Shown: in pieces, positions 2,422-51,444 of the stretch
How the letters are laid out: each line of letters begins with the position of its first letter
Position numbering within the stretch: the stretch's first letter is position 1
Sequence record: OQ031495
DNA length: 64,000 nt
DNA from: Escherichia phage MRostami-2023e
Reading direction: 5' to 3' (one strand)
Notes under the pieces: model-generated
What the model was told of the DNA's origin: nothing
What the model saw: only the letters and a program-made list of their open reading frames with translations
Databases searched by the model: none
Translations under genes and position numbers: made by a program

Positions 2422-3015
2422 ATGAACACACTGAAGAAACTTGTTGAATTCATCCGCACTAAACTGGGTACTGCTATGGCTAAAAATCTGACTGTCGAAG
2501 AACAGTATAACGCAGCTGCAGATAAGTTGATTACCCAAATCAAAGAACTAAAAACGGCTTCTGTTAAATCTATTAATGAAGAAAAACGTATTCGCGAACT
2601 TGTTAATGAAAAGAACAAGCAAGCCGCTTCTAAGGAACGTGAAATTCGTAAGCTCCTGGCCGAAGGACAAGATGTTACCATGCATGCTAAGCTTGGTCTT
2701 CTGTATCGTCGAACTGCCGAACAACTTAATACAAAAGCTGACGGGTATGCCGCTATGCGAATTGAAATTGCTCGTAAGGTGGTTGAACTTGACGATGCTC
2801 GTCAGAACCTGGCAATCAAACTCGAATACATTCGCGAAACTCGAGCAGCTAATGCCCTTGGTATCTCTACGGCCGATGATGTAATTGAAATCGCTGCACT
2901 GACTAAGGTTGATATCGAAGACACTCTGACTCGTGTTGAAACGTTCAATGGCACTCCAGCTGGTGTCGAAACCACTTCTGCTGATGTACAAGAATATATT
3001 AACTCTTTGAAATAA
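2422..3015 (+). CDS. coiled-coil protein (197 aa), weak PspA/IM30-like pattern
   Basis: Long heptad-like charged helices; assignment by eye only. Confidence 0.5.
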
Positions 3016-3023
3016 AATAATAC

Positions 3024-3046
3024 GGAGGACTCCGGTCCTCCTTTTG
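3024..3046 (+). terminator. rho-independent terminator
   Basis: ggaggac-tccg-gtcctcc followed by TTTT. Confidence 0.6.
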
Positions 3047-3064
3047 GATAATAAAGGAGTTAAC

Positions 3065-3667
3065 ATGCGAAACCAAAATAATGATATTGACTCAATGTTC
3101 GAAGAGTTCCGAGATAAGGTAAATCCACCTACGTCTTTAGTTGATTCATTACGATATGTTGCAACTGGGCGTAAATGGTACTGGTCGTCTTCTTATGAGA
3201 CTACTGAGAAAACAGCTAGCCATAGCAGAAAATCTTTATTAGCCCCAGGTATTATGATTCATGATATCGGAGCTATTGCTAAACTAGTTGCAGACCATGA
3301 TATTAGATTCACCGATTTCGTTGCTCCTACATGGTCTGTTTGTTGTTTAAACACCGAATGGGAATATATCAGCGAACGCTCTAAAGATTATTATGGTTTT
3401 AGAGATAAGCTTTTAAGGTCTAACATGTTTTATATTGATACAGAAGTTCTGGTCAATAATAAAAAATACTACTTCACTTTAATCGTCGATTCTGAAACTA
3501 TGTATGAAGGCAAGCCTTTGCTTAAAAGAGTTGATGCTTTAAGTGCTATTGATGCGCTTTATGAAACTATGGTTGTTAGTCCTAATTTCACTAACAATTT
3601 AATCCTTGAGCAATTTATTATGGAATGTAGAGAATATGTCAAAGCCAACCCTATACATGCCAAGTAA
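3065..3667 (+). CDS. hypothetical protein (200 aa)
   Basis: AAAGGAG Shine-Dalgarno plus ATG. Confidence 0.55.
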   Translation: MRNQNNDIDSMFEEFRDKVNPPTSLVDSLRYVATGRKWYWSSSYETTEKTASHSRKSLLAPGIMIHDIGAIAKLVADHDIRFTDFVAPTWSVCCLNTEWEYISERSKDYYGFRDKLLRSNMFYIDTEVLVNNKKYYFTLIVDSETMYEGKPLLKRVDALSAIDALYETMVVSPNFTNNLILEQFIMECREYVKANPIHAK

Positions 3668-4031
3668 GCCCTGGGCATACGAATACAAACGTAAATTAAT
3701 CCCAAACGAAGTACTATTTGGCCCTATTTTAGCTTTAGCATTTTTAATCTTTATGATTATAGGAGCTGTTTTAGATTCCAATAAAGTTATATCGTCCGAT
3801 GCAGCGTTTTCATTAATGTTCGTCGCACCACTTATTGTACCGTTTTTATTAATGCCTATTAATTGGGTAGGATATTGGCACCAAGGCCGTCATCACAGAG
3901 CTCGAGTTCGTGAGTGGAAAGTTCAGTGCGCAAAAGCCCAAGCTCAGTATGATGAAGCTGTTAAAAAGTATGAATATGAAGAAGCTATGGAATTCGTTAA
4001 GGAGATAAGATGCAAAAGCCACAACTCTTAA
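3636..4031 (+). CDS. small membrane protein; member of paralogous family with conserved C-terminal tail
   Basis: Two hydrophobic segments; C-terminal EFVKEIRCK related to the ENFIKECR tail of paralogs; start uncertain (alternative ATG at 3654). Confidence 0.45.
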   Translation: MSKPTLYMPSKPWAYEYKRKLIPNEVLFGPILALAFLIFMIIGAVLDSNKVISSDAAFSLMFVAPLIVPFLLMPINWVGYWHQGRHHRARVREWKVQCAKAQAQYDEAVKKYEYEEAMEFVKEIRCKSHNS

Positions 4032-4369
4032 CCGTATGGCCTTCTCTTGGTGAGAACATTCTAATTTTTATTATGAGTATTGGCATGGGATTTGCCTTTG
4101 GATTAGTTGGATTTCTTATTGACGGCGTTGTGTTAGGATTTATAGGGAACACTGGTGGATTCACAGACCAATGGCAGGACTTACGGTATACCCAAGCCTT
4201 TGCATCCATCGCATCCTTTTGTACTGTAGTCTATTTTTACTACGATTTTATAAACCGTAACAAGAAAAATAAAAAGGTTTACGCTTCTCAAATGGTTAGT
4301 TATAATGAACTCCTAGCTAGACGTGAAAATGAAACAATCGAAAACTTTATTAAGGAATGTAGAAAATGA
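4010..4369 (+). CDS. small membrane protein, paralog family (C-terminal ENFIKECRK)
   Basis: AAGGAG Shine-Dalgarno; hydrophobic N-terminal half; conserved C-terminal motif. Confidence 0.6.
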   Translation: MQKPQLLTVWPSLGENILIFIMSIGMGFAFGLVGFLIDGVVLGFIGNTGGFTDQWQDLRYTQAFASIASFCTVVYFYYDFINRNKKNKKVYASQMVSYNELLARRENETIENFIKECRK

Positions 4370-4671
4370 GTAAGATTATTGAAATTAAAGTACCAGAGTT
4401 TAATGATGCCAAATCCGCTTCAGACGCAATTTATAAACTTCTGAATCAAGCTGAACGTATCGAAGAAGAAGCAACAAAGATCGCAGACCAATATGCCGTA
4501 TCATTTTCTGTAGGTGATTATGGTAGCGGTCGTACTTATTATCCTAAGGGTGAAATCGTATCCCAGTGGATGAAAGATGAAATTGAAAATAATGGTGGCG
4601 ATGTTAAGCGTGAAGGTAATGGTTACGTTATTACTGAAGGTGCTTGGGTTTCGTCTTCTGCGTTGTGCTAA
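4366..4671 (+). CDS. hypothetical protein, first of three tandem paralogs (C-terminal GAWVSSSALC)
   Basis: ATGA overlap with upstream gene; shared C-terminal GWVSSSxxC motif. Confidence 0.6.
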   Translation: MSKIIEIKVPEFNDAKSASDAIYKLLNQAERIEEEATKIADQYAVSFSVGDYGSGRTYYPKGEIVSQWMKDEIENNGGDVKREGNGYVITEGAWVSSSALC

Positions 4672-4680
4672 GGAATCATT

Positions 4681-4953
4681 ATGTCTAAAGAACAAACCGA
4701 ACTGGCTGAAGCTGTAGCAAAAATCTATGCAGCTATTGAGGCTGCCAAAGAAATTGCTGATAAACAAAACACAACATTCAACTTGTACCCAGCTTATGGT
4801 ATGGGTGGAACCTATCATTCACCCGGACAGCTTAAAGCCGATCTTGAACGTTGTACAAAAAACGGCTATGCTGAATGGGCCGACGTTTACCAATACGACT
4901 ACAACCTGAGCCTCGAAACTGGTGGTTGGGTTGCATCTTCTCACACTTGCTAA
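4681..4953 (+). CDS. hypothetical protein, tandem paralog 2 (C-terminal GGWVASSHTC)
   Basis: Shared C-terminal motif and helical N-terminus. Confidence 0.6.
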   Translation: MSKEQTELAEAVAKIYAAIEAAKEIADKQNTTFNLYPAYGMGGTYHSPGQLKADLERCTKNGYAEWADVYQYDYNLSLETGGWVASSHTC

Positions 4954-4962
4954 GGAAACCAT

Positions 4963-5160
4963 ATGTCTCGTGAATTGGATTGTGCTGTACGTACGGCAGT
5001 AGCTGCTCTGGAAAACCTGTTCCAAATTGCAACAGAAGAACGCGAAGAAGTTACATTATGGATTGAAGATAACGCAGGTCTGAATCTCCAGGACGCGATC
5101 TCATTATCCCACAATAGTATCACTGTTCAAGGCTGGGTATCATCTAGTTATTCTTGCTAA
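4963..5160 (+). CDS. hypothetical protein, tandem paralog 3 (C-terminal QGWVSSSYSC)
   Basis: Shared C-terminal motif. Confidence 0.55.
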   Translation: MSRELDCAVRTAVAALENLFQIATEEREEVTLWIEDNAGLNLQDAISLSHNSITVQGWVSSSYSC

Positions 5161-5164
5161 AACA

Positions 5165-5195
5165 GTTTACAACAAGATAGGGCTATGTTATAGTA
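5165..5195 (+). promoter_or_regulatory. T4-type early promoter candidate
   Basis: GTTTACA, 18-nt spacer, TGtTATAGT; palindrome ataggact/agtcctat around the -10. Confidence 0.5.
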
Positions 5196-5222
5196 GTCCT
5201 ATCAAATTAAATGGAGTTCACA

Positions 5223-5462
5223 ATGATTTATTACGAAAGTATCGGAACCGAAGTAGTTGCTAAAACTATTACTCGTGAAAAGTTTGCAAAGATATTCGAT
5301 ATGCGTTATAAAAAATCTGAACACAAAGGCATCCGATTCGAAGATGCGCACTGTACAATTTGCCCTTATAATGAAGACATAAACGGTACAATCGTTCCAT
5401 TGGTAGAGGCTTCACATGTCGACCTCTGGGATGAATATGATATCGCATGTCGTGAAATTTAA
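5223..5462 (+). CDS. hypothetical protein (79 aa)
   Basis: GGAG Shine-Dalgarno upstream of ATG at 5223. Confidence 0.5.
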   Translation: MIYYESIGTEVVAKTITREKFAKIFDMRYKKSEHKGIRFEDAHCTICPYNEDINGTIVPLVEASHVDLWDEYDIACREI

Positions 5463-5490
5463 GTTAATGAATTAATCCGAGGAAAATATT

Positions 5491-6447
5491 ATGATGTTAG
5501 TTATTGGTTCTCGTGCACTTCACTATCACGGTCTTATTGATTCTAGCGCTATCAAAAATAGTGATTGGGACTTTATTGCGGACCAATGTTCTTGGAATGC
5601 ATTCAAAAATCAAATGATGGGTGTATATGTCCACCAAGATAACCCTGATGTCCAAGTTTTCAAATGCTTCCATAATGGACGCGAAACTCATTTTGAAGCA
5701 TATATTGTTCCGGCAATCACTAACGTTCGCGAACTAGTCGGTGAACTCACTCCTGAAGATTTCACGTCTTCTTATGACCTTTTAAAATACGCCAAGAAAA
5801 ATTTGACTAAAGACCGTTTGAACGGGTTTTACTGGGCAACTCCCGAGATATGTCTTGCAATTAAGATGTCTCATCGTTTCAAGAAAAATAATCCATTCTT
5901 TTTAAAGACTATGAACCATATTCAGTATCTTCGTGGTAAAGGTGTTACACTGAACGATGAACTTACTGAAATTATGCTGAAACGCCAGAAAGAAACCTTG
6001 AACTATGCTCACCCAGTTCTTGACACTTCTAAAAGTGCGTTCTTTAAAGATGACATCTATACATATGACCATGATACTATTCACGAAGCCATTGCGTTAA
6101 CAGGCCGCCCAGCGTATACATTTTATATGAAAGACGGTTCTGAAGTCATGACCTCACGTGAGAAGTTCGAATCGTTACCAGAAATGGTCAAATTGGCCGG
6201 TGTATATGAAGAATCATGTGTACTAGCATTAGAACGTTCTCAGATTCCTAATGACTTTAAAATTAACCCTGAAGCCAGTTTCATGATGGCATTAGAAAAA
6301 GTCTGCACAAGCATCACCTCCGGTTGGTTCCGTGAATACGCATACGAGAACTACAGCAAAGTTGTAAGTATGTATCATAAGCTCGGCAAAAATGATTACA
6401 TTAAACGGTTTAAAGAAAATTTTCATATGGTGAAACCTTTCAAATAA
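5491..6447 (+). CDS. hypothetical protein (318 aa), possible minimal nucleotidyltransferase fold
   Basis: N-terminal GS...(15 aa)...DWDF pattern resembles Pol-beta-type NTase hG[GS]/DxD motif; weak. Confidence 0.5.
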   Translation: MMLVIGSRALHYHGLIDSSAIKNSDWDFIADQCSWNAFKNQMMGVYVHQDNPDVQVFKCFHNGRETHFEAYIVPAITNVRELVGELTPEDFTSSYDLLKYAKKNLTKDRLNGFYWATPEICLAIKMSHRFKKNNPFFLKTMNHIQYLRGKGVTLNDELTEIMLKRQKETLNYAHPVLDTSKSAFFKDDIYTYDHDTIHEAIALTGRPAYTFYMKDGSEVMTSREKFESLPEMVKLAGVYEESCVLALERSQIPNDFKINPEASFMMALEKVCTSITSGWFREYAYENYSKVVSMYHKLGKNDYIKRFKENFHMVKPFK

Positions 6448-6728
6448 CTTCACAAAACTGTTTACANNNNNNNNNNNNNNNNNNNNNNNNNNNNNNNNNN
6501 NNNNNNNNNNNNNNNNNNNNNNNNNNNNNNNNNNNNNNNNNNNNNNNNNNNNNNNNNNNNNNNNNNNNNNNNNNNNNNNNNNNNNNNNNNNNNNNNNNNN
6601 NNNNNNNNNNNNNNNNNNNNNNNNNNNNNNNNNNNNNNNNNNNNNNNNNNNNNNNNNNNNNNNNNNNNNNNNNNNNNNNNNNNNNNNNNNNNNNNNNNNN
6701 NNNNNNNNNNNNNNNNNNNNNNNNNNNN

Positions 6729-6760
6729 GTTTACACAATTATAGGACTATGTTATAGTAG
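6729..6760 (+). promoter_or_regulatory. T4-type early promoter candidate
   Basis: GTTTACA ... TGtTATAGT immediately after masked region; same palindrome as at 5165. Confidence 0.45.
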
Positions 6761-6786
6761 TCCTATTAAAACATGAGGAGAATATT

Positions 6787-7092
6787 ATGAAATTAACAGA
6801 AACCAATCGAATTGGTCTTTTAACAATACTTGCATCACCTTTTTACGCAACTCTTTCTGTTGCGGTATTACAAAAGGCTTACAGTATGGATGGTGTTCCT
6901 GGTTGTATATTTTTATCACCATTTTTGCTATTCGTTGGAGCTTTGTTATTATATGCCACGTCTGGTTTCGACAATAATGTCTGGGTCAATTATAAACGTA
7001 AATTGTCTGAAGAAGAACACGCAGAAGCTCGTAAAAAAGCTATTGAATCTACCAATCTAGAAAATTTCATTAAAGAATGTCGAGGAAAATAA
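6787..7092 (+). CDS. small membrane protein, paralog family (C-terminal ENFIKECRGK)
   Basis: Two TM-like segments; conserved C-terminal motif. Confidence 0.6.
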   Translation: MKLTETNRIGLLTILASPFYATLSVAVLQKAYSMDGVPGCIFLSPFLLFVGALLLYATSGFDNNVWVNYKRKLSEEEHAEARKKAIESTNLENFIKECRGK

Positions 7093-7093
7093 T

Positions 7094-7780
7094 ATGAATA
7101 GTTCTAAAGTGTTTAATAGTCAAGCTCGTGCAGTAGGTGGTTTTGCTCATGCGATTAAAAACGACCAGATTAAAAACGAGCCTATGTTCTTCAACTGTAG
7201 TTTAGAATTTGCTTATAATAACGGCGGTCCTATTACTCGCAGCTTCATCATGAACTTGCCAGATGATTGGAACACCGACCAGGTTGTATTTGATTCACGA
7301 GTCCACATGCTGATGCCTGGTTGGTACCCTGCTATCCCAGGTTATCACCATGACGATGTACCACGCCCGGATATTCCGGTTGGTCAACACTTTATTACTG
7401 CAGGACAACCTGACTATGACAATCCTCGCTATTTGTCTGAACATATTCTTGGTCTTGTTAACGCTGATGTGTGTCCTACTCATTTTGCAACAGGAACTGC
7501 AGAGTTCAGTCAGATTCCTGATGGCGAACTTATCTATCGTCAGTGGCACAAAGAAGTCCTCGAAAAAATTGAAAAAGGCGAACTAGAGAAATGGGAAGCT
7601 CCAGATCGTACTCTTCTTCAGTTTGATTGGCAAACATGGCACACTGGTTCTCGTGCAATTAGTAACGGATGGCGTTGGTTCGGACGTGTATCTCGTAATA
7701 CAGACCGAGTTAAAAAGATTACCAATGAAATTCGTGTCAATGCCCAAGTTTATCTGGAATTCCCTATGGAAGGCTGGTAA
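7094..7780 (+). CDS. hypothetical protein (228 aa)
   Basis: ORF with coupled start; His/Asp-rich segment GYHHDD; function unknown. Confidence 0.55.
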   Translation: MNSSKVFNSQARAVGGFAHAIKNDQIKNEPMFFNCSLEFAYNNGGPITRSFIMNLPDDWNTDQVVFDSRVHMLMPGWYPAIPGYHHDDVPRPDIPVGQHFITAGQPDYDNPRYLSEHILGLVNADVCPTHFATGTAEFSQIPDGELIYRQWHKEVLEKIEKGELEKWEAPDRTLLQFDWQTWHTGSRAISNGWRWFGRVSRNTDRVKKITNEIRVNAQVYLEFPMEGW

Positions 7781-44894: not shown

Positions 44895-45530
44895 ATGAAA
44901 ACTACTCCTATTACTATCGCTATTGACGCAATCATAAAACAAGCTTCTTCTTTGGCCGCTATGGCCAAAGTAATTAGTCAAAACCCTGCTCGTTATAATG
45001 CTATTCTAGAAACTCTTCGACGCCCTGGACTTAGTAATTATGAAAGCCGAGTAATTATTACAGGTGTTGGTAAGAATGCTAATATTGCAACTAAAGCGTC
45101 TGAGACATTTGCTTCACTCGGTATCCCGAGTATGTACTTGAACACTGGGCATTATTCTCACGGTGATGCAGGATTTATTGCGCCTAATGATGTGTTGATT
45201 CATATTAGTCGTTCTGGTAAAACTGAAGAAATGATAGGCGTGGCTAAGCATCTTAAAATGATTCGCCCGAACGTCAAACAGATTCTGTTGCATTGTAACC
45301 CAGACATTCCACAAGAATACGAAGCCCTTTTTGATTACTCTTTCTGTACAGGCATCGCGGTAGAAGTTGATGAGAATTCTCTGGCTCCGACTATGTCCAC
45401 TACATTGTTGTTAGCGCTTATCGATACGTTTGCTATCAACCTTTCGTCTGAACGTGGATTTACCTCTAATGACTTCCTTAAGTTCCACCCTGGCGGTGCA
45501 CTAGGTGCCATGTTACGAGGCGAACAATGA
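44895..45530 (+). CDS. SIS-domain sugar-phosphate isomerase, arabinose-5-phosphate isomerase (KdsD/GutQ)-like, no CBS domains
   Basis: ITGVGKNANIATKASETFASLGIPSMYLNTGHYSHGDAGFIAPNDVLIHISRSGKTEE resembles the KdsD SIS core (GxGKS...HGDxG...SxSG). Confidence 0.7.
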   Translation: MKTTPITIAIDAIIKQASSLAAMAKVISQNPARYNAILETLRRPGLSNYESRVIITGVGKNANIATKASETFASLGIPSMYLNTGHYSHGDAGFIAPNDVLIHISRSGKTEEMIGVAKHLKMIRPNVKQILLHCNPDIPQEYEALFDYSFCTGIAVEVDENSLAPTMSTTLLLALIDTFAINLSSERGFTSNDFLKFHPGGALGAMLRGEQ

Positions 45531-45711: not shown

Positions 45712-47397
45712 ATGAAAAAAGCTGTTATTCTTGGTGCTGGACTGGCAACTCGTTTGTATCCAATAACGCATCATATTCCTAAGGTGCTTGTTAACTATAA
45801 ACAAGACACTATTCTGAGCAATTTGTATACAATTTATTCTGACCTTGGCGCAGATGAAATTATTGTAGTAGTTCATTCAAAATTTGCTGAAACTGTTCGA
45901 GCTTATTGTGAGCAAGAAGGGTTCAATGTGACTATTCGTACAGTTGATGAAGCGTATGGTTCTGCTTATGCTCTTGCTAAATTACACAAAGATTTAGACG
46001 GCCATAATGTAATTGTTAACTGGTGTGATATTATTCCGGATTTTGGTTCATGGTCTTGGAATGTTAACGCAATCTATGTTAAGGGTGACGAATGTCGATA
46101 TAATTTCGACGGTGAAAATATCACTAACGTAGGTTCAACAGGTGGTAATGTTGTAGGAATTTATCAGTTCAAAGACTGGGAATTCTATATGGGTTCTACC
46201 GATGAGGAAATTCATGAATACTGCAAAGGACGTGATTTCGTAGAATTCCTTTACGGCAGCGCATTCAATAAATCAGAGCTTATGAATCTAATTGATTTAG
46301 GTGATATGCCTAAACTTGAAAAAGCTCATGAAGTTCGTGAACTTAATCGTAGTTTTAATGCAGTTGAAATTGGTGAAGAAACTGTAACTAAATTCGCATT
46401 AACCGAACAGGGTCGAGCTCTTCAGAAAGATGAGATTTCATGGTATCTTAAAGTGAAATCAGATTCAGTTCCTCAGTTAGTTTCTGTTAATGAAAATAAC
46501 TTTGAAATGGAACGCATTAAAGGTAAGCCGGCATTTGAATATATTAAATCAAAATCAAGTCTTGCTCGTCCACAAATTATTGATGCAATTTTAGATGCAC
46601 TGAAATTCAGCACAGACACTTATTTTGTAAGTCCTGAAACTGTTCGCCGTGATTTCACTAAAGAATTCTATACGAAAGTTATTGATCGTTGTGAAAGTAT
46701 TCAACCATTGATTGATTCATTTGGTAAAATCACACATGTGAACTACACTAAGATTGGGCGTCTGAAGCCAATGTTGAAACAAGCTTTAGAACATCTTATT
46801 CGTTATCATAACCGTTCTCAGGGACAGTACTCTGTTATTCACGGTGACCCGAACTTCAGTAATACTATGATTACTGATAACGGCGAAGTCAAGTTTATCG
46901 ACCCTCGTGGATATTTTGGCGAAACCAAGATTTACGGGCCAAAATTGTATGATGAAGCTAAAGTGCTTTATGCTGTTTCAGGTTATGATGAATTCAATGC
47001 TAATCCGGCCTGGGGACAGTTTACTATTGATGAAACAACTTGTAATGTGACTATTAACATCAATCCATTAGTTTACAAATATGGAAAGATGAGTTCGTTT
47101 AACGAGTATCATCATTTGGCAGTGGCAATTATCTGGATTGCATTAGGTGGTTATTTCAAGAATAATCCACTTAAAGCGGTTGCCGCATATTATAAAGGTA
47201 TGGAACTTCTGACTAAGCAATTACGTAACATGGGCCGTGTACTTCAAGACGGCTCTATTAGTTATGACGTAGCAGAACCTGTAACGGCTACTCTGATTAC
47301 AAAAAATCCGGGTAAATGGGTACTAACTGATAAAGAAACTGGTGTTTCCTATCGTCCAATCGGTGGCGATATCACTCATCAATGGGAACGAATCTAA
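45712..47397 (+). CDS. bifunctional sugar-1-phosphate nucleotidylyltransferase (N-terminal) / aminoglycoside-phosphotransferase-type sugar kinase (C-terminal)
   Basis: N-terminal KKAVILGAGLATRLYPIT (GxGxRL NTP-transferase motif); C-terminal HGDPNFSNTMI...KFIDPRGYFG (APH/choline-kinase Brenner motif plus D-x-R/G). Confidence 0.7.
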   Translation: MKKAVILGAGLATRLYPITHHIPKVLVNYKQDTILSNLYTIYSDLGADEIIVVVHSKFAETVRAYCEQEGFNVTIRTVDEAYGSAYALAKLHKDLDGHNVIVNWCDIIPDFGSWSWNVNAIYVKGDECRYNFDGENITNVGSTGGNVVGIYQFKDWEFYMGSTDEEIHEYCKGRDFVEFLYGSAFNKSELMNLIDLGDMPKLEKAHEVRELNRSFNAVEIGEETVTKFALTEQGRALQKDEISWYLKVKSDSVPQLVSVNENNFEMERIKGKPAFEYIKSKSSLARPQIIDAILDALKFSTDTYFVSPETVRRDFTKEFYTKVIDRCESIQPLIDSFGKITHVNYTKIGRLKPMLKQALEHLIRYHNRSQGQYSVIHGDPNFSNTMITDNGEVKFIDPRGYFGETKIYGPKLYDEAKVLYAVSGYDEFNANPAWGQFTIDETTCNVTININPLVYKYGKMSSFNEYHHLAVAIIWIALGGYFKNNPLKAVAAYYKGMELLTKQLRNMGRVLQDGSISYDVAEPVTATLITKNPGKWVLTDKETGVSYRPIGGDITHQWERI

Positions 47398-47783
47398 TGC
47401 ACCGTGTAGAAAACATGCTTAATCTTTATTTTGATGTCGATGATTGTATAACAGAGTGGAATAACAATCGTGATTACGTGAACTTCAAGCCAGACGTCGA
47501 AATGGTGTCTGCCATTAATGCCCTGTATGATGCAGGGCATACCATAACGCTTTACACTGCTCGCGGTATGAAGTCAGTAGGTCCTGGACGTATAGCAATT
47601 GACATTCTCCCAAGTCTGATTCAGAACTTGGCAAACATTGGCTTGAAGTACCATAATTTGCTAACACATAAACCAGTATATGATTGGATTATCGACGACA
47701 AAGCTATGCGTCCTGACGAATTCAAAGCTCTTATGAATAAAGGCGAATTCGAAACATTTAAATCATATAAACCGAATCTATAA
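47397..47783 (+). CDS. HAD-superfamily phosphatase (subfamily IIIA-like)
   Basis: Motif I FDVDDCIT, motif II TITLYTAR, motif III HKP, motif IV IIDDK; TAATG coupling to upstream gene. Confidence 0.65.
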   Translation: MHRVENMLNLYFDVDDCITEWNNNRDYVNFKPDVEMVSAINALYDAGHTITLYTARGMKSVGPGRIAIDILPSLIQNLANIGLKYHNLLTHKPVYDWIIDDKAMRPDEFKALMNKGEFETFKSYKPNL

Positions 47784-47840: not shown

Positions 47841-49001
47841 ATGAATACTTTTAAAATCGGAACGAATTTTGATTTAGCTCTTCTTGATAAAATCGTAGAG
47901 CTCAATAAAACTTATCCTAATAGCTTGATAAACGAAGTATACGGCTCTACAAGAGAAATGGCTTTTGTAGCAGCCAGACCTGATTTTAGGCTTCCTGACG
48001 TTGACAAAAAGATGTTAGAAGATTACGTTAAACGTTGTAACGAATTAGGTATTTGCTTTAACTATACACTCAACACGATAAATCCGGGTTCAAAAAGAGA
48101 ACTAGTTGAGTGGAAGAAGAAAGCTATTCAGGACTATGTTCAGTATCTTTGGTCAATAGGCGTATGGCGTATTACTATCGCTAACCCTGTTGTTATGGAA
48201 ATTGTTCGTGAAGTCAATAAAGACATTGAGATTGAAGTTTCAACAATTCTACATGTCGATGCTGTAACTCAAATCAAATACTTGCATGACCAGTATAATA
48301 TCAAAAAGGTCTGCTGTGGAATTCATAAGAACCGTTCAGTTTCTTTCCTGAAGCGTGCAGCAGAGTTTTGCAATAAGAACAATATAATATTTGAAGTTCT
48401 TGTAAATGAGTTCTGTTCTAATGCTGGTAAAGGGTATACAACACATTGTAGCTATCGTGACTCTTGCTATATTTTCCATAGTACTGATGTTACAGCTGAT
48501 GATGCTAAATCCTTAAATGGATATCCTATGCAGCACTGTATTAAAGCTCGTGATACAGACCCATTTAACTGGTTGAGAACTCGTTTTGTTCGTCCACAAG
48601 ATTTGAAACTTTATAATGATATTGGTATCACTCAATTTAAAGTTTCGGGACGTACAGGTAGCACAGACTACATTTTGAAAGTTCTTGAAGCATACGCTTC
48701 TGAAAAGTTTGAAGGTAATTTGTTAGAATTGTGGAAGCCTTTAGAGACCATTTTCACTCTTGAAAATGAGACCGAGTTTTCACATACGGTAAATATTGAA
48801 ACCTCTTTGTTAGATGGCTTTTTAGAAAAAAGGTGGTTCAGACATCCAGATTTCGATTGTGCTAATGAAATCTGCGGGACGACGTGTACATATTGTGAAA
48901 GATATTATAAACGTCAGTTATCTAAAAACGGGTTAGCAGAAAACTCTATATCTATTATTGATATAACTAACTCTGATGACGCTTTGAGGTACCCGGAATG
49001 A
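47841..49001 (+). CDS. Cys-rich protein (386 aa), possible TIM-barrel/U32-like or Fe-S enzyme
   Basis: Cys clusters KVCCGIH, EFCSNAGKGYTTHCSYRDSC and C-terminal CANEICGTTCTYC; fold assignment tentative. Confidence 0.55.
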   Translation: MNTFKIGTNFDLALLDKIVELNKTYPNSLINEVYGSTREMAFVAARPDFRLPDVDKKMLEDYVKRCNELGICFNYTLNTINPGSKRELVEWKKKAIQDYVQYLWSIGVWRITIANPVVMEIVREVNKDIEIEVSTILHVDAVTQIKYLHDQYNIKKVCCGIHKNRSVSFLKRAAEFCNKNNIIFEVLVNEFCSNAGKGYTTHCSYRDSCYIFHSTDVTADDAKSLNGYPMQHCIKARDTDPFNWLRTRFVRPQDLKLYNDIGITQFKVSGRTGSTDYILKVLEAYASEKFEGNLLELWKPLETIFTLENETEFSHTVNIETSLLDGFLEKRWFRHPDFDCANEICGTTCTYCERYYKRQLSKNGLAENSISIIDITNSDDALRYPE

Positions 49002-49237
49002 TTTCTAGAAAAACTTTTAATTATAATCTTAACGAAGAGATTTTGACTATTAAACTGAACACTAACGAACAAATTCTTAAAAAGGCCCTTATGGGCCTGT
49101 TTGAAACCAAAGCGGCTAAAGTGATTAAAGAACCTGTTCAATTGGAATACTACACTGATGCATTCCTTCATAGTGTTCTTGGAAGTATAGATTCTGAAGC
49201 TTTACGTTATATCAACATTGCCAAGAAATTCAAATAA
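48998..49237 (+). CDS. hypothetical protein (79 aa)
   Basis: ATGA-coupled. Confidence 0.45.
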   Translation: MISRKTFNYNLNEEILTIKLNTNEQILKKALMGLFETKAAKVIKEPVQLEYYTDAFLHSVLGSIDSEALRYINIAKKFK

Positions 49238-49278: not shown

Positions 49279-49995
49279 ATGGGAAAACATAACACAATGA
49301 AATATATCAAAGCCGCAGATTTTCAAACCGCATTTAAAGCAGTCAATCGTGAAATTTTAGAAAACCCGGAATTCGTAACTGATTCTCGTATTGGACGTTG
49401 TAATGAAATTGGGTCTATGACAGTAGTTGTTGACACTCCATCATCATTCAAAATGACCGACCCACGTATTAACCGCATCTCTTATGAATATGCCGAAGAC
49501 TTCTGGAAGTTTATGATTTCTGGTGGTACTGATGCAGAAGAAGCGTTTAAGGCATATCCTAATGTCGCTAAATTTATTTCTAAACCTAAATCAGACGCTT
49601 TGCCTGCAAACTTCAACACTTTCTACGGTCCTCGCATTGCGGCCCAATTACCGGCTCTTCTAAAAGAACTTAAAGAGAAGCCTAACTCTCGAAGAGTTGT
49701 GTTCCAAATTCTAGAAAGTTCTGATCAGGCTTTGCTTGATTCGGACGAAACGCTTGAATATCCATGTACTGACTCAGTGACTTATTATATTCGCGATGGT
49801 AAGCTTTATACCCACTGTCATATGCGTTCTCAGAACTGTGCTGTTGTTATGCAGTTGGATTTTTATCTCCAAGGAAAATTACTTCATTATATCGCTAACG
49901 AATGTGGTGTAGAAGTTGGTGATTATACTCATACCATGGTAAGTGCCCATGTGTTTGAACGTGATTTTGATTATGTTAAAGGGTTTCTTGACTAA
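49279..49995 (+). CDS. 42: dCMP hydroxymethylase gp42 (thymidylate-synthase fold)
   Basis: Position between 43 and uvsX; YPCTDSVTYYIRDGKL and HMRSQN resemble the catalytic-Cys region of T4 gp42; start may be 49297. Confidence 0.7.
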   Translation: MGKHNTMKYIKAADFQTAFKAVNREILENPEFVTDSRIGRCNEIGSMTVVVDTPSSFKMTDPRINRISYEYAEDFWKFMISGGTDAEEAFKAYPNVAKFISKPKSDALPANFNTFYGPRIAAQLPALLKELKEKPNSRRVVFQILESSDQALLDSDETLEYPCTDSVTYYIRDGKLYTHCHMRSQNCAVVMQLDFYLQGKLLHYIANECGVEVGDYTHTMVSAHVFERDFDYVKGFLD

Positions 49996-50894
49996 TGGCT
50001 ATTTTCCGCGTACCTATTTTGAGTATGCGGTCTTATGAAACTGGACAGTATGCTATCCTTAAGGATGGCAACTTCCAACTTCATTTGCACCGTGCTAATC
50101 CAGGCGATGTGATTACATATCCACGTAATGCATCTGATATTAAAGAATGTGAACGTCTTTTCCCAGAATTTAAGTTTGTTCCATTATGGTATAAAGATAA
50201 CGCGTATAACACTCGTAAATATTTCTGGTCTGAAAATGAATTTGTGGTTGATTCATTAATTGCTTATTATGATTGTGATTTTCTAATCACAGATATCACT
50301 GGATATGATGGCGCTTTTGACGTAGAATTCAATTTCAATATCACTGCAGACCCTAATAAACCACGTTTTTATATTGACGAATTCTTAAAAACCGACATGT
50401 TGTCGGTTAATCGTTCACTTCAAACTACTGTGTTGAATGAACGTCAAAAAGAAGTGCTGGTTAACGCAGGTGCAGATGGTAATAAGATTATCGTAACGCA
50501 GAAAGTTATACGTCCTTCCGTCATGCAGCGTCTTGTAGGTGATTTGGCTCCTATTCATCTAGATGGTATTTTTCATCCATTTCGAATTAGTGACCCATGC
50601 TATCGTTTTGAACAAGTTGTTGAATGCGCAATTCAATTAGGTCAACCGCTTTATATAACTGATCCAAATAATAGTTTCGACAGAAATAAGTATCCTGAAG
50701 AAGCGCTGATTCGAATTTTTAATCCAACTAAAACTGAGTACTATCAAATTCTTAAAGGACGTCCGAAGATTCAATATTTCGAAAATCCTGAAGAAGTATT
50801 CCATCCAGGTCTTGGTGAGTTCATCTACTTTAACGCTTTAATTTCTTCGCCGTATAATATACCTAAATACGAAGATGTCGTAATCGAGGAATAA
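49995..50894 (+). CDS. hypothetical protein (299 aa) occupying the T4 beta-glucosyltransferase position
   Basis: ATGA-coupled to gene 42; no recognisable motif. Confidence 0.55.
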   Translation: MAIFRVPILSMRSYETGQYAILKDGNFQLHLHRANPGDVITYPRNASDIKECERLFPEFKFVPLWYKDNAYNTRKYFWSENEFVVDSLIAYYDCDFLITDITGYDGAFDVEFNFNITADPNKPRFYIDEFLKTDMLSVNRSLQTTVLNERQKEVLVNAGADGNKIIVTQKVIRPSVMQRLVGDLAPIHLDGIFHPFRISDPCYRFEQVVECAIQLGQPLYITDPNNSFDRNKYPEEALIRIFNPTKTEYYQILKGRPKIQYFENPEEVFHPGLGEFIYFNALISSPYNIPKYEDVVIEE

Positions 50895-50895
50895 A

Positions 50896-51444
50896 ATGGC
50901 TAAAATTATTTTAGTAGATGGCCCAGATAATGCTGGTAAAACAACTTTCATTAATGACATAATGGAAATTAGTGAAAGATATGTAAAGATTGATTTCCCT
51001 AAACGAACAGTTGATGGACGTTTCGATGTTAAGTCTCGAAATGAAGTTGGCTGTTTCGAAACGATGTTGAATTATTTAGACCCTACTAAGATTTATCTGT
51101 TAGACCGTGGATATATTAGTAACTGGGTTTATGGACGTATTCGACAAGATGCGGATTCGGTTCTTGACGTTTATGAACAGGATTATATTCGTCTTTGCCA
51201 AAACCATGATGTGTTCACAATTATTTTAACACGTAACGAAATGACTGAAAGTTTTGAAGACGACCTTATTACTTTGTCTTCATTCGGTTTTAATACAGTC
51301 ATTTCACATTTTGAAGAGTTTGCAATTCATAACAAAATCCAAACGTATCAATTACTTAATCATGATGGTGCTAACAAAGTTATAGGATTTAATGCAAGCG
51401 AACGTAATGATTTGATTACAGAAATCATCAAATGGGCTCGTTAA
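50896..51444 (+). CDS. thymidylate-kinase-like P-loop nucleotide kinase
   Basis: P-loop LVDGPDNAGKTT and LDRGYISNWVYG (Tmk-like DRY-type motif). Confidence 0.55.
   Translation: MAKIILVDGPDNAGKTTFINDIMEISERYVKIDFPKRTVDGRFDVKSRNEVGCFETMLNYLDPTKIYLLDRGYISNWVYGRIRQDADSVLDVYEQDYIRLCQNHDVFTIILTRNEMTESFEDDLITLSSFGFNTVISHFEEFAIHNKIQTYQLLNHDGANKVIGFNASERNDLITEIIKWAR

Follow-up and report, generated by a model that had tools for sequence, protein, structure and literature searches.

The U32-family gene and the surrounding DNA-modification module

The window, a 64,000-nucleotide (64-kb) stretch of Escherichia phage MRostami-2023e (OQ031495), comes from an RB69-like Mosigvirus. Positions 47841..49001 of the plus strand, stop codon included, hold a gene with an ATG start that encodes a 386-aa protein, the ortholog of RB69 gp50 (ORF050c). 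The opposite strand of 47841..49001 contains no open reading frame of comparable size. Amino acids 94-286 (48120..48698, plus strand) correspond to a Peptidase_U32 domain (PF01136) located in a (beta/alpha) barrel. The Pfam match reached 42.2 bits with an E value of 7.3e-11 (cutoff 22.4), and the same domain is among the precomputed assignments of nearly all homologs. An earlier sequence-only reading had described the resemblance to U32 proteins as weak; the match is nonetheless significant, and the protein does belong to the family, as a divergent member. It also has the U32 barrel fold of 5d88, the only solved U32 member. Sequence searches of the PDB with the phage U32 protein and with a profile of gp49, the product of the next gene, yielded nothing useful, and none of the PADLOC defence-system models matched the phage U32 protein, gp49 or a cellular U32 homolog. 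The published labels of gp50 are "peptidase" or "sugar or heterocycle reductase" (the latter in PMC13326640, Table 1), and the label was given without experiment. Many records annotate the homologs as "peptidase" or "collagenase-like protease".

The neighbors place the gene within a DNA-modification module, as had been proposed. Upstream, on the same strand, are the genes for an arabinose-5-phosphate isomerase (gp55, 44895..45530; PMC13326640), an AfhE-like bifunctional sugar kinase/nucleotidyltransferase that is here a single intact 561-aa ORF (gp52:53, 45712..47397; PMC6024577, PMC13326640) and an AfhF-like HAD phosphatase (gp51, 47382..47783; PMC13326640). Downstream, also on the plus strand, a 79-aa ORF (RB69 gp49, 48998..49237), the start of which overlaps the U32 stop codon (ATGA), is followed by a thymidylate-synthase homolog of the 5-hydroxy-dCMP synthase type (RB69 gp48, 49279..49995; Pfam TS), a glycosyltransferase proposed to be arabinosyltransferase 1 and present here as a single intact 299-aa ORF (gp46:47, 49995..50894; PMC13326640), and a thymidylate-kinase-like nucleotide kinase (gp45, 50896..51444; PMC13326640). 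Scans of the module found promoter-like sites at the rate of the shuffled background and no terminators on the plus strand.

The neighbor that had been read as "gene 42" has the signature L143E/D169N/N177D, which marks it as a 5-hydroxy-dCMP synthase rather than a dCMP hydroxymethylase (PMC13326640). Enzymes of the gp48 type are flavin-dependent and take their oxygen from O2 (PMC13326640), and the re-assignment of the RB69-type base in 2025-2026 made it arabinosyl-5-hydroxycytosine, the product of an O2-dependent flavoenzyme. The identity of this neighbor as a flavin- and O2-dependent synthase changes the meaning of the neighborhood. The three enzymes that lead from Ru5P to UDP-Araf are all accounted for without the U32 gene (PMC13326640), and the published gene table of DLP3, the reported maker of tri-arabinosylated 5-hydroxycytosine (5hoC), shows no U32 entry (PMC13326640).

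Conserved cysteines and predicted metal sites

The phage U32 protein contains 13 cysteines (3.4%; the median among the 57 ORFs of at least 150 aa in the window is 1.2%), which gives it rank 56 of 57. The three Cys clusters described in the sequence-only reading are all where it had put them: KVCCGIH at aa 156-162 (nt 48306-48326), EFCSNAGKGYTTHCSYRDSC at aa 190-209, and CANEICGTTCTYC at aa 340-352 (nt 48858-48896), the last including C345-x3-C349-x2-C352. Among 121 homologs sharing 48-87% identity, nine cysteines never vary (C158, C192, C203, C209, C233, C340, C345, C349 and C352), and C177 is kept in 98%. In a deeper set with a median identity of 31%, C192, C203 and C233 are kept at 99-100%, position 209 is Cys or His, and the four C-terminal cysteines are kept at 94-95%, while C158 falls to 59% and C177 to 16%. 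Judged by these alignments, the Cys pattern is not a product of chance. Deep conservation also defines two predicted four-ligand sites, C192/C203/C209(His)/C233 and C340/C345/C349/C352, the ligand sets of which were deduced in this way. The U32 gene is under purifying selection, with dN/dS = 0.07 against Yersinia phage TG1, the one pair for which the ratio is usable because dS is saturated in the other comparisons.

The first predicted site lies in a variant U32 motif at aa 185-237 (48393..48551, plus strand) that comprises E185, C192, C203, C209, C233 and the invariant R237, as located by alignment with UbiU, UbiV, RlhA and TrhP. The classical U32 signature is E-x-F-x2-G-[SA]-[LIVM]-C-x4-G-x-C-x-[LIVM]-S. 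It matches UbiU, RlhA and TrhP but none of the 121 members of the phage clade, which carry the variant E185...EFC192-x10-C203-x-[YF]RD[SA]-C209-Y. The canonical 4Fe-4S motif of the family is CX6CX15CX3/4C (PMC6747719). Compared with it, the phage protein keeps C203, C209 and C233 with the spacing CX5CX23C, and R237 occupies the position of the canonical fourth Cys, as an Arg does in UbiU. The central segment that had been likened to the U32 Cys motif is indeed that motif, with three proven 4Fe-4S ligand positions of UbiU conserved (PMC6747719). C192 is the best candidate for a replacement of the fourth ligand, a prediction based on its 99% conservation at depth while C209 alternates with His. 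The Glu and two motif Cys that are essential in the U32 hydroxylases RlhA and TrhP (PMC5727448, PMC6599085) are retained as E185 (Glu in 116/121, Asp in 5/121), C203 and C209 (both 121/121).

The second predicted site, C340-x4-C345-x3-C349-x2-C352 (48858..48896, plus strand), is specific to the clade and could hold a second Fe-S cluster or Zn. This four-Cys motif was found in 119/121 family members, and none of the four U32 proteins of E. coli has it. The CxxxCxxC spacing to which the sequence-only reading had drawn attention is present as a part of this site and is not a radical-SAM signature.

Chorismate mutase linkage and distribution of the U32 gene

Chorismate mutase (CM) makes prephenate. 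Prephenate has been shown to be the oxygen donor for UbiU/UbiV (PMC10990095), and RlhA and TrhP require it. The U32 gene is followed by a CM gene in six other T4-like lineages that were checked directly and in 13/15 T4-like IMG/VR loci. In those six lineages the slot orthologous to gp49 holds a CM that scores above the cutoff and has an invariant catalytic set; Entb_45 and PM2 are examples of CM-bearing relatives. The U32 gene of unrelated jumbo phages and of prophages in anaerobes adjoins CM or fusions of DAHP synthase and CM; no CM or DAHP synthase was found within the flank examined in 26/36 distant lineages. We regard the genomic context as the decisive evidence for reading the phage U32 protein as a hydroxylase.

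In the phage analyzed here, gp49 does not qualify as an AroQ CM, as defined by the CM_2 profile together with the catalytic Arg/Arg/Lys/Glu/Ser/Gln set: the 79-aa ORF gave no CM_2 match even at E<=10. Its hhalign probability against the phage CMs was 0.08%, its homologs are confined to Mosigviruses, and its AF2 model consists of three helices at low confidence (pLDDT 62). The possibility that gp49 is a decayed CM was rejected on these results. No CM was found elsewhere in the whole 64-kb window, and the Clarke_MM3-type Klebsiella phages also lack one. The RB69-like lineage of this phage has lost CM. The key CM linkage is thus inherited from the orthologs for this phage, since its own lineage has none.

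The U32 gene always lies inside DNA-glycosylation modules, and these modules, which combine glycosylation with nucleotide kinases, occur in at least three unrelated phage groups. Its immediate partners are enzymes acting at the dNMP level: dCMP deaminase, thymidylate-kinase-like and guanylate-kinase-like kinases, NT5C and dNK. In all the T4-like carriers the gene adjoins the flavin-dependent 5-hydroxy-dCMP synthase, and in distant loci it co-occurs with AfhE and the A5P isomerase; at seven genomic loci it is part of a different operon with a kinase-methyltransferase fusion, of which a prophage of the cultivable Phocaeicola faecalis FXJYN30E22 is an example. A TS-type synthase was not detected in 33 distant U32-bearing contigs by a pattern-seeded scan that could miss divergent homologs or incomplete genomes; 13 distant contigs are at least 100 kb long. 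The Acinetobacter phages, which infect strict aerobes, have the same arabinose genes without U32 in the modules checked (DLP1 and Melin). The Dhakaviruses, with E. coli hosts and the same module, lack it too, so enteric phages can do without the U32 gene. The correlation between U32 presence and host ignores phylogeny and includes MAG host labels that can be wrong. No paper linking U32 or CM to phage 5hoC was found in the full texts searched, a set that excludes He et al. 2026 (Nat Chem Biol) and also Mahler et al. 2025 (Cell Host Microbe), where a mention of the gene would be most expected. Lee et al. 2026 refer to the pathways of RlhA and TrhP without relating them to gp50.

Proposed function and comparison with known systems

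The remark in the sequence-only reading that the U32 family includes Fe-S dependent pyrimidine C5 hydroxylases proved to be its best lead. We consider it probable that the phage U32 protein is an O2-independent, prephenate-dependent Fe-S cytosine C5-hydroxylase. Metal binding, prephenate use, the substrate and the physiological role are inferred: hydroxylation without O2 is suggested by the family, the context and the host distribution, and the use of prephenate by the linkage with CM, DAHP synthase and DAHP synthase-CM fusions in T4-like and unrelated phages. The substrate would most likely be dCMP and less likely cytosine already in DNA, and the product, 5-hydroxycytosine, would be the base to which the arabinosyltransferases from the neighboring genes attach their sugar. 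For RB69-like and other enterobacterial T4-like phages, U32 may be the anaerobic counterpart of the adjacent flavin- and O2-dependent 5-hydroxy-dCMP synthase, following the same dual aerobic/anaerobic logic as TrhO/TrhP for tRNA ho5U and UbiI,H,F/UbiU,V for ubiquinone. It could be the sole hydroxylase of phages and prophages in obligate anaerobes. In a mechanism modeled on PMC10990095, a two-electron oxidation of the substrate ring would be followed by exit of the electrons through the C192/C203/C209/C233 cluster and the second site, C340/C345/C349/C352; decarboxylation of prephenate would then free its hydroxyl for transfer to C5, yielding phenylpyruvate and CO2. Most lineages carry their own CM, some with a DAHP synthase as well, which would supply the prephenate; the lineage of this phage, having lost CM, would have to rely on host PheA and TyrA.

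Other functions were weighed against the proposed hydroxylase. An accessory redox protein, either an Fe-S electron-transfer partner or flavin reductase for the FMN-dependent 5hodCMP synthase or a reductase of a sugar or base intermediate, would agree with the position of U32 beside that synthase in all the T4-like carriers, with the two conserved Cys sites and with the "sugar or heterocycle reductase" label in PMC13326640, Table 1. We judge it improbable: it leaves unexplained the repeated linkage to CM and DAHP synthase and the 33 U32-bearing contigs without a detected TS-type synthase, U32 keeps the residues that RlhA and TrhP need for hydroxylation, and the Acinetobacter phages and Dhakaviruses run the synthase without U32. 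The CM linkage, as a source of prephenate, would fit equally well a phage analog of TrhP or RlhA that adjusts translation in the infected cell by hydroxylating RNA (ho5U in tRNA or ho5C in rRNA). T4-like phages encode their own tRNAs, and the only characterized pyrimidine-directed U32 proteins act on RNA. However, the extra domains of TrhP (Peptidase_U32_C) and RlhA are absent, PF01136 being the only one found, and the gene is embedded in DNA-glycosylation and nucleotide-kinase modules of at least three unrelated phage groups with partners that act on dNMPs, which makes action on RNA quite unlikely.

The sequence-only reading was correct about the U32 family and the module, but its suggestion of an epimerase or transferase of the sugar branch is not supported. 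An epimerase, mutase or transferase that makes or attaches arabinose would account for the location of U32 directly after the three UDP-arabinose genes and for its company of AfhE and A5P isomerase in distant loci. We find such a role very unlikely because the Acinetobacter phage modules (DLP1, Melin) and, according to its published table (PMC13326640), the tri-arabinosyl-5hoC phage DLP3 have the arabinose route without U32; moreover, the route from Ru5P to UDP-Araf already has its three enzymes, no sugar-enzyme family or fold matched above U32, and the CM linkage would go unexplained. A radical-SAM-like enzyme, suggested by C345-x3-C349-x2-C352, and a genuine collagenase-type peptidase, suggested by the annotations of many records, were rejected as hardly credible on the grounds of profile, motif position and gene context. 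No Radical_SAM match was obtained with Pfam or NCBIfam even at E<=0.1, and the motif lies in the C-terminal part together with a fourth conserved Cys, C340, and therefore implies no open iron site. The name peptidase is historical, the characterized U32 members being needed for hydroxylation, and a protease would leave the CM and nucleotide context without an explanation.

If the phage U32 protein is the proposed hydroxylase, several consequences follow. The O2-dependent synthase leaves the question of how phages of gut bacteria replace all their cytosine without oxygen, and a U32 gene with a CM partner is a concrete and testable answer. We give an even chance to the broader claim that the clade is the first case of U32/prephenate hydroxylases working on DNA building blocks, that is, a virus-encoded O2-independent dCMP C5-hydroxylase that permits enteric T4-like phages to make fully 5hoC-substituted glycosylated DNA in the anoxic gut and that is the sole hydroxylase, fed by phage-encoded DAHP synthase and CM, in jumbo phages and prophages of obligate anaerobes. 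Such phages and prophages would then hide a diversity of O-glycosylated, possibly O-methylated, pyrimidine DNA, and their DAHP synthase-CM fusions beside a prephenate consumer would be a new type of auxiliary metabolic module. In vitro hydroxylation by any U32 protein is still to be demonstrated, and assays are lacking (PMC10990095). With 386 aa and dCMP as its possible substrate, the phage enzyme would be much simpler to work with than ribosome precursors, tRNA or lipid-bound quinone intermediates, and, being a small single chain with a small soluble substrate, it could give the first in vitro reconstitution of U32 hydroxylase chemistry. Therapeutic Mosigviruses are predicted to depend on U32 and the host prephenate supply for their fitness and host range under anaerobic conditions, and the relatives without U32 (Dhakaviruses and Acinetobacter phages) to be oxygen-dependent.

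The kinship to characterized hydroxylases is remote: TrhP (YegQ) is the only E. coli U32 protein touched, weakly, by a profile of the phage clade. The structurally solved Mk0906 of Methanopyrus kandleri (PDB 5d88), a U32 domain, is a 247-residue chain with 14% identity to the 386-aa phage protein. RlhA (YdcP), the E. coli synthase of 5-hydroxycytidine C2501 in 23S rRNA, shares the U32 domain at a similarity beyond the reach of the clade profile. Its E161, C169 and C176 align with phage E185, C203 and C209, its C192 aligns with phage C233, and it has essential cysteines in the C-terminal region, where the phage protein also has conserved ones. RlhA needs prephenate and Fe-S biogenesis and makes 5-hydroxy-cytosine, the base chemistry proposed for the phage protein. 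Unlike the latter, which is encoded in DNA-precursor modules, RlhA is 653 aa long, carries additional domains and modifies a single cytidine of pre-50S particles. It has the canonical CX6CX15CX3C motif in place of CX10CX5CX23C with an Arg in the fourth position and the phage protein's own CX4CX3CX2C tail. TrhP has the motif residues in common with phage U32 and is prephenate-dependent and O2-independent; TrhP and TrhO provide dual prephenate- and O2-dependent routes to tRNA ho5U34. The substrate of TrhP is a tRNA uridine and the protein includes Peptidase_U32_C, whereas phage U32 has PF01136 alone, and the O2-dependent partner is a rhodanese for TrhP and a flavin-binding thymidylate-synthase homolog for phage U32.

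UbiU and UbiV, also of the U32 family, each have a proven 4Fe-4S cluster, the UbiU ligands being C169, C176, C193 and C232 (PMC6747719). Three of these four positions are invariant Cys in the phage clade, which shares with UbiU an Arg in place of the canonical fourth Cys. For UbiU and UbiV the oxygen donor was shown to be prephenate (PMC10990095). UbiU-UbiV is a heterodimer that acts on a lipid-bound aromatic ring with the carrier UbiT, whereas phage U32 is a single chain with two predicted sites that possibly combines the roles of both subunits; the ubiUV genes have no linked dedicated CM. The thymidylate-synthase-like 5-hydroxy-dCMP synthases (RB69 gp48, DLP3 gp80 and the HY126 enzyme) have the same proposed product, 5hodCMP, and belong to the same module as phage U32, but their fold is unrelated, and they depend on flavin and use O2 as the oxygen source.

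The U32-family gene and its module

The ORF at 47841-49001 (plus strand; ATG start, 386 codons) encodes a protein that belongs to the U32 family in sequence and fold and conserves the essential positions; the linkages and distributions of the gene were likewise established. The likeness to U32 proteins, proposed by eye in the sequence-only reading, was therefore confirmed, and the three cysteine segments quoted there were all found: KVCCGIH (aa 156-162), EFCSNAGKGYTTHCSYRDSC (aa 190-209) and CANEICGTTCTYC (aa 340-352). The opposite strand is closed over this interval, with no comparable ORF. The protein has 13 cysteines (3.4%; median 1.2%, rank 56/57 among the window's long ORFs). In 121 homologs sharing 48-87% identity nine cysteines are invariant and one is 98% conserved, a pattern that the alignment indicates is conserved and not due to chance. 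The dN/dS of the gene is about 0.07 where synonymous sites are unsaturated.

The 6.5-kb module is 100% identical to that of Escherichia phage vB_EQ1 and 98% identical to that of RB69, and for this reason the window was assigned to Mosigvirus. The RB69 ortholog, ORF050c/gp50, shares 99.5% protein identity. On the same strand lie genes for an arabinose-5-phosphate isomerase (44895-45530), a 561-aa AfhE-like kinase/nucleotidyltransferase (45712-47397) and a HAD phosphatase (47382-47783), followed after the U32 gene by a 79-aa ORF, RB69 gp49 (48998-49237), a thymidylate synthase (TS) homolog (49279-49995), a 299-aa glycosyltransferase (49995-50894) and a thymidylate-kinase-like kinase (50896-51444). 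The AfhE-like and glycosyltransferase genes are each one intact ORF, which fits the published view that sequencing errors split them into ORFs 052c/053c and 046/047 in RB69's GenBank entry. According to a recent revision, the RB69 DNA base is arabinosylated 5-hydroxycytosine (5hoC), not hydroxymethylcytosine, and 5-hydroxy-dCMP is made by the TS homolog gp48, a flavin-binding enzyme whose oxygen source is O2 (PMC13326640). The window TS homolog has the signature L143E/D169N/N177D (E. coli ThyA numbering), common to its orthologs in Acinetobacter, Dhakavirus and Shewanella phages, and Ala at W80. Because this is the 5-hydroxy-dCMP synthase signature, the gene is no counterpart of T4 gene 42, the name given to it from sequence, and the database names thymidylate synthase and dCMP hydroxymethylase are misleading.

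The homologs were aligned with E. coli UbiU, UbiV, RlhA and TrhP. Phage residues C203, C209 and C233 align with UbiU C169/C176/C193, RlhA C169/C176/C192 and TrhP C170/C177/C193, and E185 aligns with RlhA E161 and TrhP E162. The proven 4Fe-4S ligands of UbiU are C169/C176/C193/C232 (PMC6747719), and RlhA E161/C169/C176 and TrhP E162/C170/C177 are essential in vivo (PMC5727448, PMC6599085). The canonical fourth cysteine is replaced by an invariant arginine in the phage clade, as it is in UbiU, and the classical U32 signature matched 0 of the 121 clade members. When the alignment was deepened to 129 sequences, at a median of 31% identity to the window protein, C192, C203 and C233 were kept at 99-100%, position 209 was Cys in 61% and His in 38%, and conservation of C158 and C177 decayed. 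Because of this deep conservation, the first metal site is likely to be C192-x10-C203-x5-C209-x23-C233. The C-terminal motif C340-x4-C345-x3-C349-x2-C352 was found in 119 of the 121 clade members, with 94-95% conservation in the deeper alignment, and was absent from the four E. coli U32 proteins; it is clade-specific. RlhA, too, has essential cysteines near its C-terminus, which this motif brings to mind.

Chorismate mutase beside the U32 gene

In the Enterobacter phage Entb_45 a 79-aa ORF overlapping the U32 stop codon is annotated as chorismate mutase (CM), and its profile match (CM_2, 40.9 bits; cutoff 27) marks it as a true AroQ enzyme. The ORF after U32 is likewise a CM (32.8-46.8 bits) in Pectobacterium PM2, Klebsiella PhiKpNIH-6, Yersinia TG1, Proteus Pm5461 and Shewanella Thanatos-2, the last with the pair at a different module position. 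The invariant residues of the phage enzymes match the AroQ catalytic set, with residue roles as in EcCM. In all 51 phage records that carry this CM, its gene is flanked by U32 and the TS homolog. Among 37 IMG/VR TS-type hydroxylase loci with full flanks, 13 had both U32 and CM, two U32 only, 22 neither and none CM only (Fisher p 3e-8, phylogeny not corrected for). This linkage matters because CM makes prephenate, which is needed by RlhA and TrhP (PMC5727448, PMC6599085, PMC10990095) and is the oxygen donor of the UbiU/V reactions, as determined by 18O labelling (PMC10990095).

The linkage has two exceptions, the Mosigvirus lineage of the window and the Clarke_MM3-type Klebsiella phages. The 79-aa ORF at 48998-49237 resembles the CM of other genera in size, position and ATGA overlap with the U32 stop. 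Its identification as a CM was rejected: no CM profile matched even at E<=10, and profile-profile comparison with phage CMs gave no similarity (0.08%). Its homologs are restricted to Mosigviruses, its predicted model has three helices at low confidence, and it may be either a substitute for the CM or a gene in decay; some database copies are truncated to 47-58 aa. No CM was found elsewhere in the 64-kb window. The lineage has lost its CM, and for the window phage the argument from U32-CM linkage therefore comes from orthologs. In Clarke_MM3-type phages the CM slot holds no ORF whatever: the TS homolog starts 43 bp after U32, with no small ORF (L064, Klebsiella phage Clarke_MM3; L017:7161-7205). 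Their module order also differs (AfhE, HAD, kinase, U32, TS), which shows that the surroundings of a conserved U32-TS pair have been rearranged repeatedly. In such lineages the U32 enzyme would rely on host PheA and TyrA.

Distant homologs and hosts

Homologs with 40-58% identity are numerous on phage-like contigs, many of 127-466 kb. A CM, DAHP synthase (DAHPS) or DAHPS-CM gene lies within 6 kb of U32 in 10 of 36 dereplicated lineages. CM overlaps or comes after U32 in L048 and the L051 group. DAHPS-CM fusions (L042:4411-5430, L045:4321-5373, L046:4332-5384, L056:7079-8194, L068:4931-5959) follow U32 in L056 and stand about 1 kb upstream in L042, L044/45 and L046, and stand-alone DAHPS genes (L004:9145-9888, L030:7080-7823) follow it, with DAHPS models scoring 237 bits versus 63 for KDO8P synthase. 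In the viral fusions the CM is C-terminal, the reverse of the NCBIfam bifunctional model, where it is N-terminal. These fusions occur in jumbo phages and in anaerobes' prophages, and they have the look of a viral module that drives carbon toward prephenate.

The 26 viral loci also carried AfhE-like genes (12/26), arabinose-5-phosphate isomerase (9/26), gp46:47-type glycosyltransferases (at least 13/26), thymidylate-kinase-like kinases (6/26) and dCMP deaminase (4/26), with the recurring orders kinase - glycosyltransferase - U32 and isomerase - AfhE - x - U32. Only one distant locus had a TS gene within 4.5 kb of U32, a canonical ThyA. An IMG/VR scan, which used aligned TS-type hydroxylases and two short seed patterns, detected this enzyme on 15/15 T4-like U32 contigs and on 0/33 distant ones, 13 of them at least 100 kb long; by this pattern-seeded scan, the hydroxylase's functional slot in distant phages is occupied by the U32 gene. 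The genes directly after U32 in L038 (7086-7979) and L033 (7090-8160) show weak likeness to TAGT, the family of TET-associated DNA glycosyltransferases (22.6 bits), and to a GT47 glycosyltransferase, a hint that a hydroxyl made by the U32 enzyme may then be glycosylated on DNA.

A second conserved operon occurs at about 3000-7100 in each of L066 (=L002) and L072-L077, where the genomes belong to anaerobes, among them Phocaeicola faecalis, Tannerella and Lachnospiraceae. Its order is GP88 (PF17338), a guanylate-kinase-like NMP kinase/SAM methyltransferase fusion (415-453 aa), a 264-282-aa protein and U32. Analogy with tRNA mo5U/cmo5U suggests that its product could be a pyrimidine nucleotide of the 5-methoxy type. 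An Abi_2 gene adjoins it in L075; these loci matched no PADLOC system. Ten further loci from Clostridia, Desulfobacteraceae and relatives (L078-L087) encode proteins with only 27-30% identity to the query; they probably form a cellular U32 subfamily adjacent to this one.

At identities of at least 80%, all 221 phage records with the U32 gene came from Enterobacterales or Shewanella and none from Acinetobacter, which accounts for 57 of the 373 records with an AfhE-type module. DLP1 (Lazarusvirus) and Melin (Hadassahvirus) have no U32 gene, and their HAD gene directly adjoins the TS homolog. Since Dhakaviruses of E. coli also lack U32, as well as CM, absence is uninformative. GTDB species representatives yielded 13 loci at 44-52% identity, from Erysipelotrichales, Oscillospiraceae, Lachnospiraceae, Romboutsia, Gastranaerophilaceae, Tannerella, Phocaeicola faecalis, colon Clostridia and a few environmental MAGs; most of these hosts are obligate anaerobes. 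Five of the 13 showed CM, DAHPS-CM, AfhE, isomerase and glycosyltransferase partners. U32 presence is so far limited to hosts able to live without O2, a correlation uncorrected for phylogeny.

Proposed role and alternatives

We hypothesize, as more likely than not, that C192/C203/C209/C233 of the U32 protein hold a 4Fe-4S cluster and its four C-terminal cysteines a second metal centre, and that it hydroxylates cytosine C5 with a hydroxyl taken from prephenate. The ring would first lose two electrons by oxidation, and decarboxylation would then drive release of the prephenate hydroxyl, as proposed for U32 enzymes (PMC10990095). The mononucleotide dCMP is favoured as substrate over cytosine in DNA because the U32 partners are dNMP-level enzymes (kinases, dCMP deaminase, NT5C, dNK), and because, as in T-even biology, a phage that degrades dCTP and replaces all cytosine needs its modified nucleotide to be ready when replication begins.

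The published table entry for gp50 is 'sugar or heterocycle reductase', with fold matches to 5d88 and no comment in the text (PMC13326640). A reductase, or a redox helper for gp48, is nevertheless unlikely, since it would leave unexplained both the CM/DAHPS linkage and the contigs on which no TS-type enzyme was detected. Hydroxylation of RNA is conceivable but less probable still, as the phage protein is without the additional domains that TrhP and RlhA carry, and its gene is always inside DNA-modification modules. That module placement supports the role in the modification pathway proposed from sequence, but the epimerase or transferase then suggested is unlikely, and any enzyme of the sugar pathway is very improbable: DLP3, the reported maker of tri-arabinosyl-5hoC, has no U32 in its published gene table (PMC13326640), and neither do the examined Acinetobacter phage modules (DLP1, Melin). 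Least credible are a radical-SAM enzyme and a peptidase, which failed their tests; the C-terminal motif was rejected as a radical-SAM signature on its four cysteines, its C-terminal position and the lack of a profile match. A defence-system role found no support (no match).

The gene itself is already known and annotated. The accessible literature, two relevant subscription papers being outside its scope, holds no link of the U32 gene or the phage CM to 5hoC synthesis. What would be new is a U32/prephenate hydroxylase of viral setting that acts on a new class of substrate, has a variant pattern of ligands and is served by dedicated genes for prephenate supply. In the window phage this C5-hydroxylase would serve as an O2-independent back-up for gp48, and the two proteins would then be analogous to the TrhO/TrhP and UbiIHF/UbiUV pairs.
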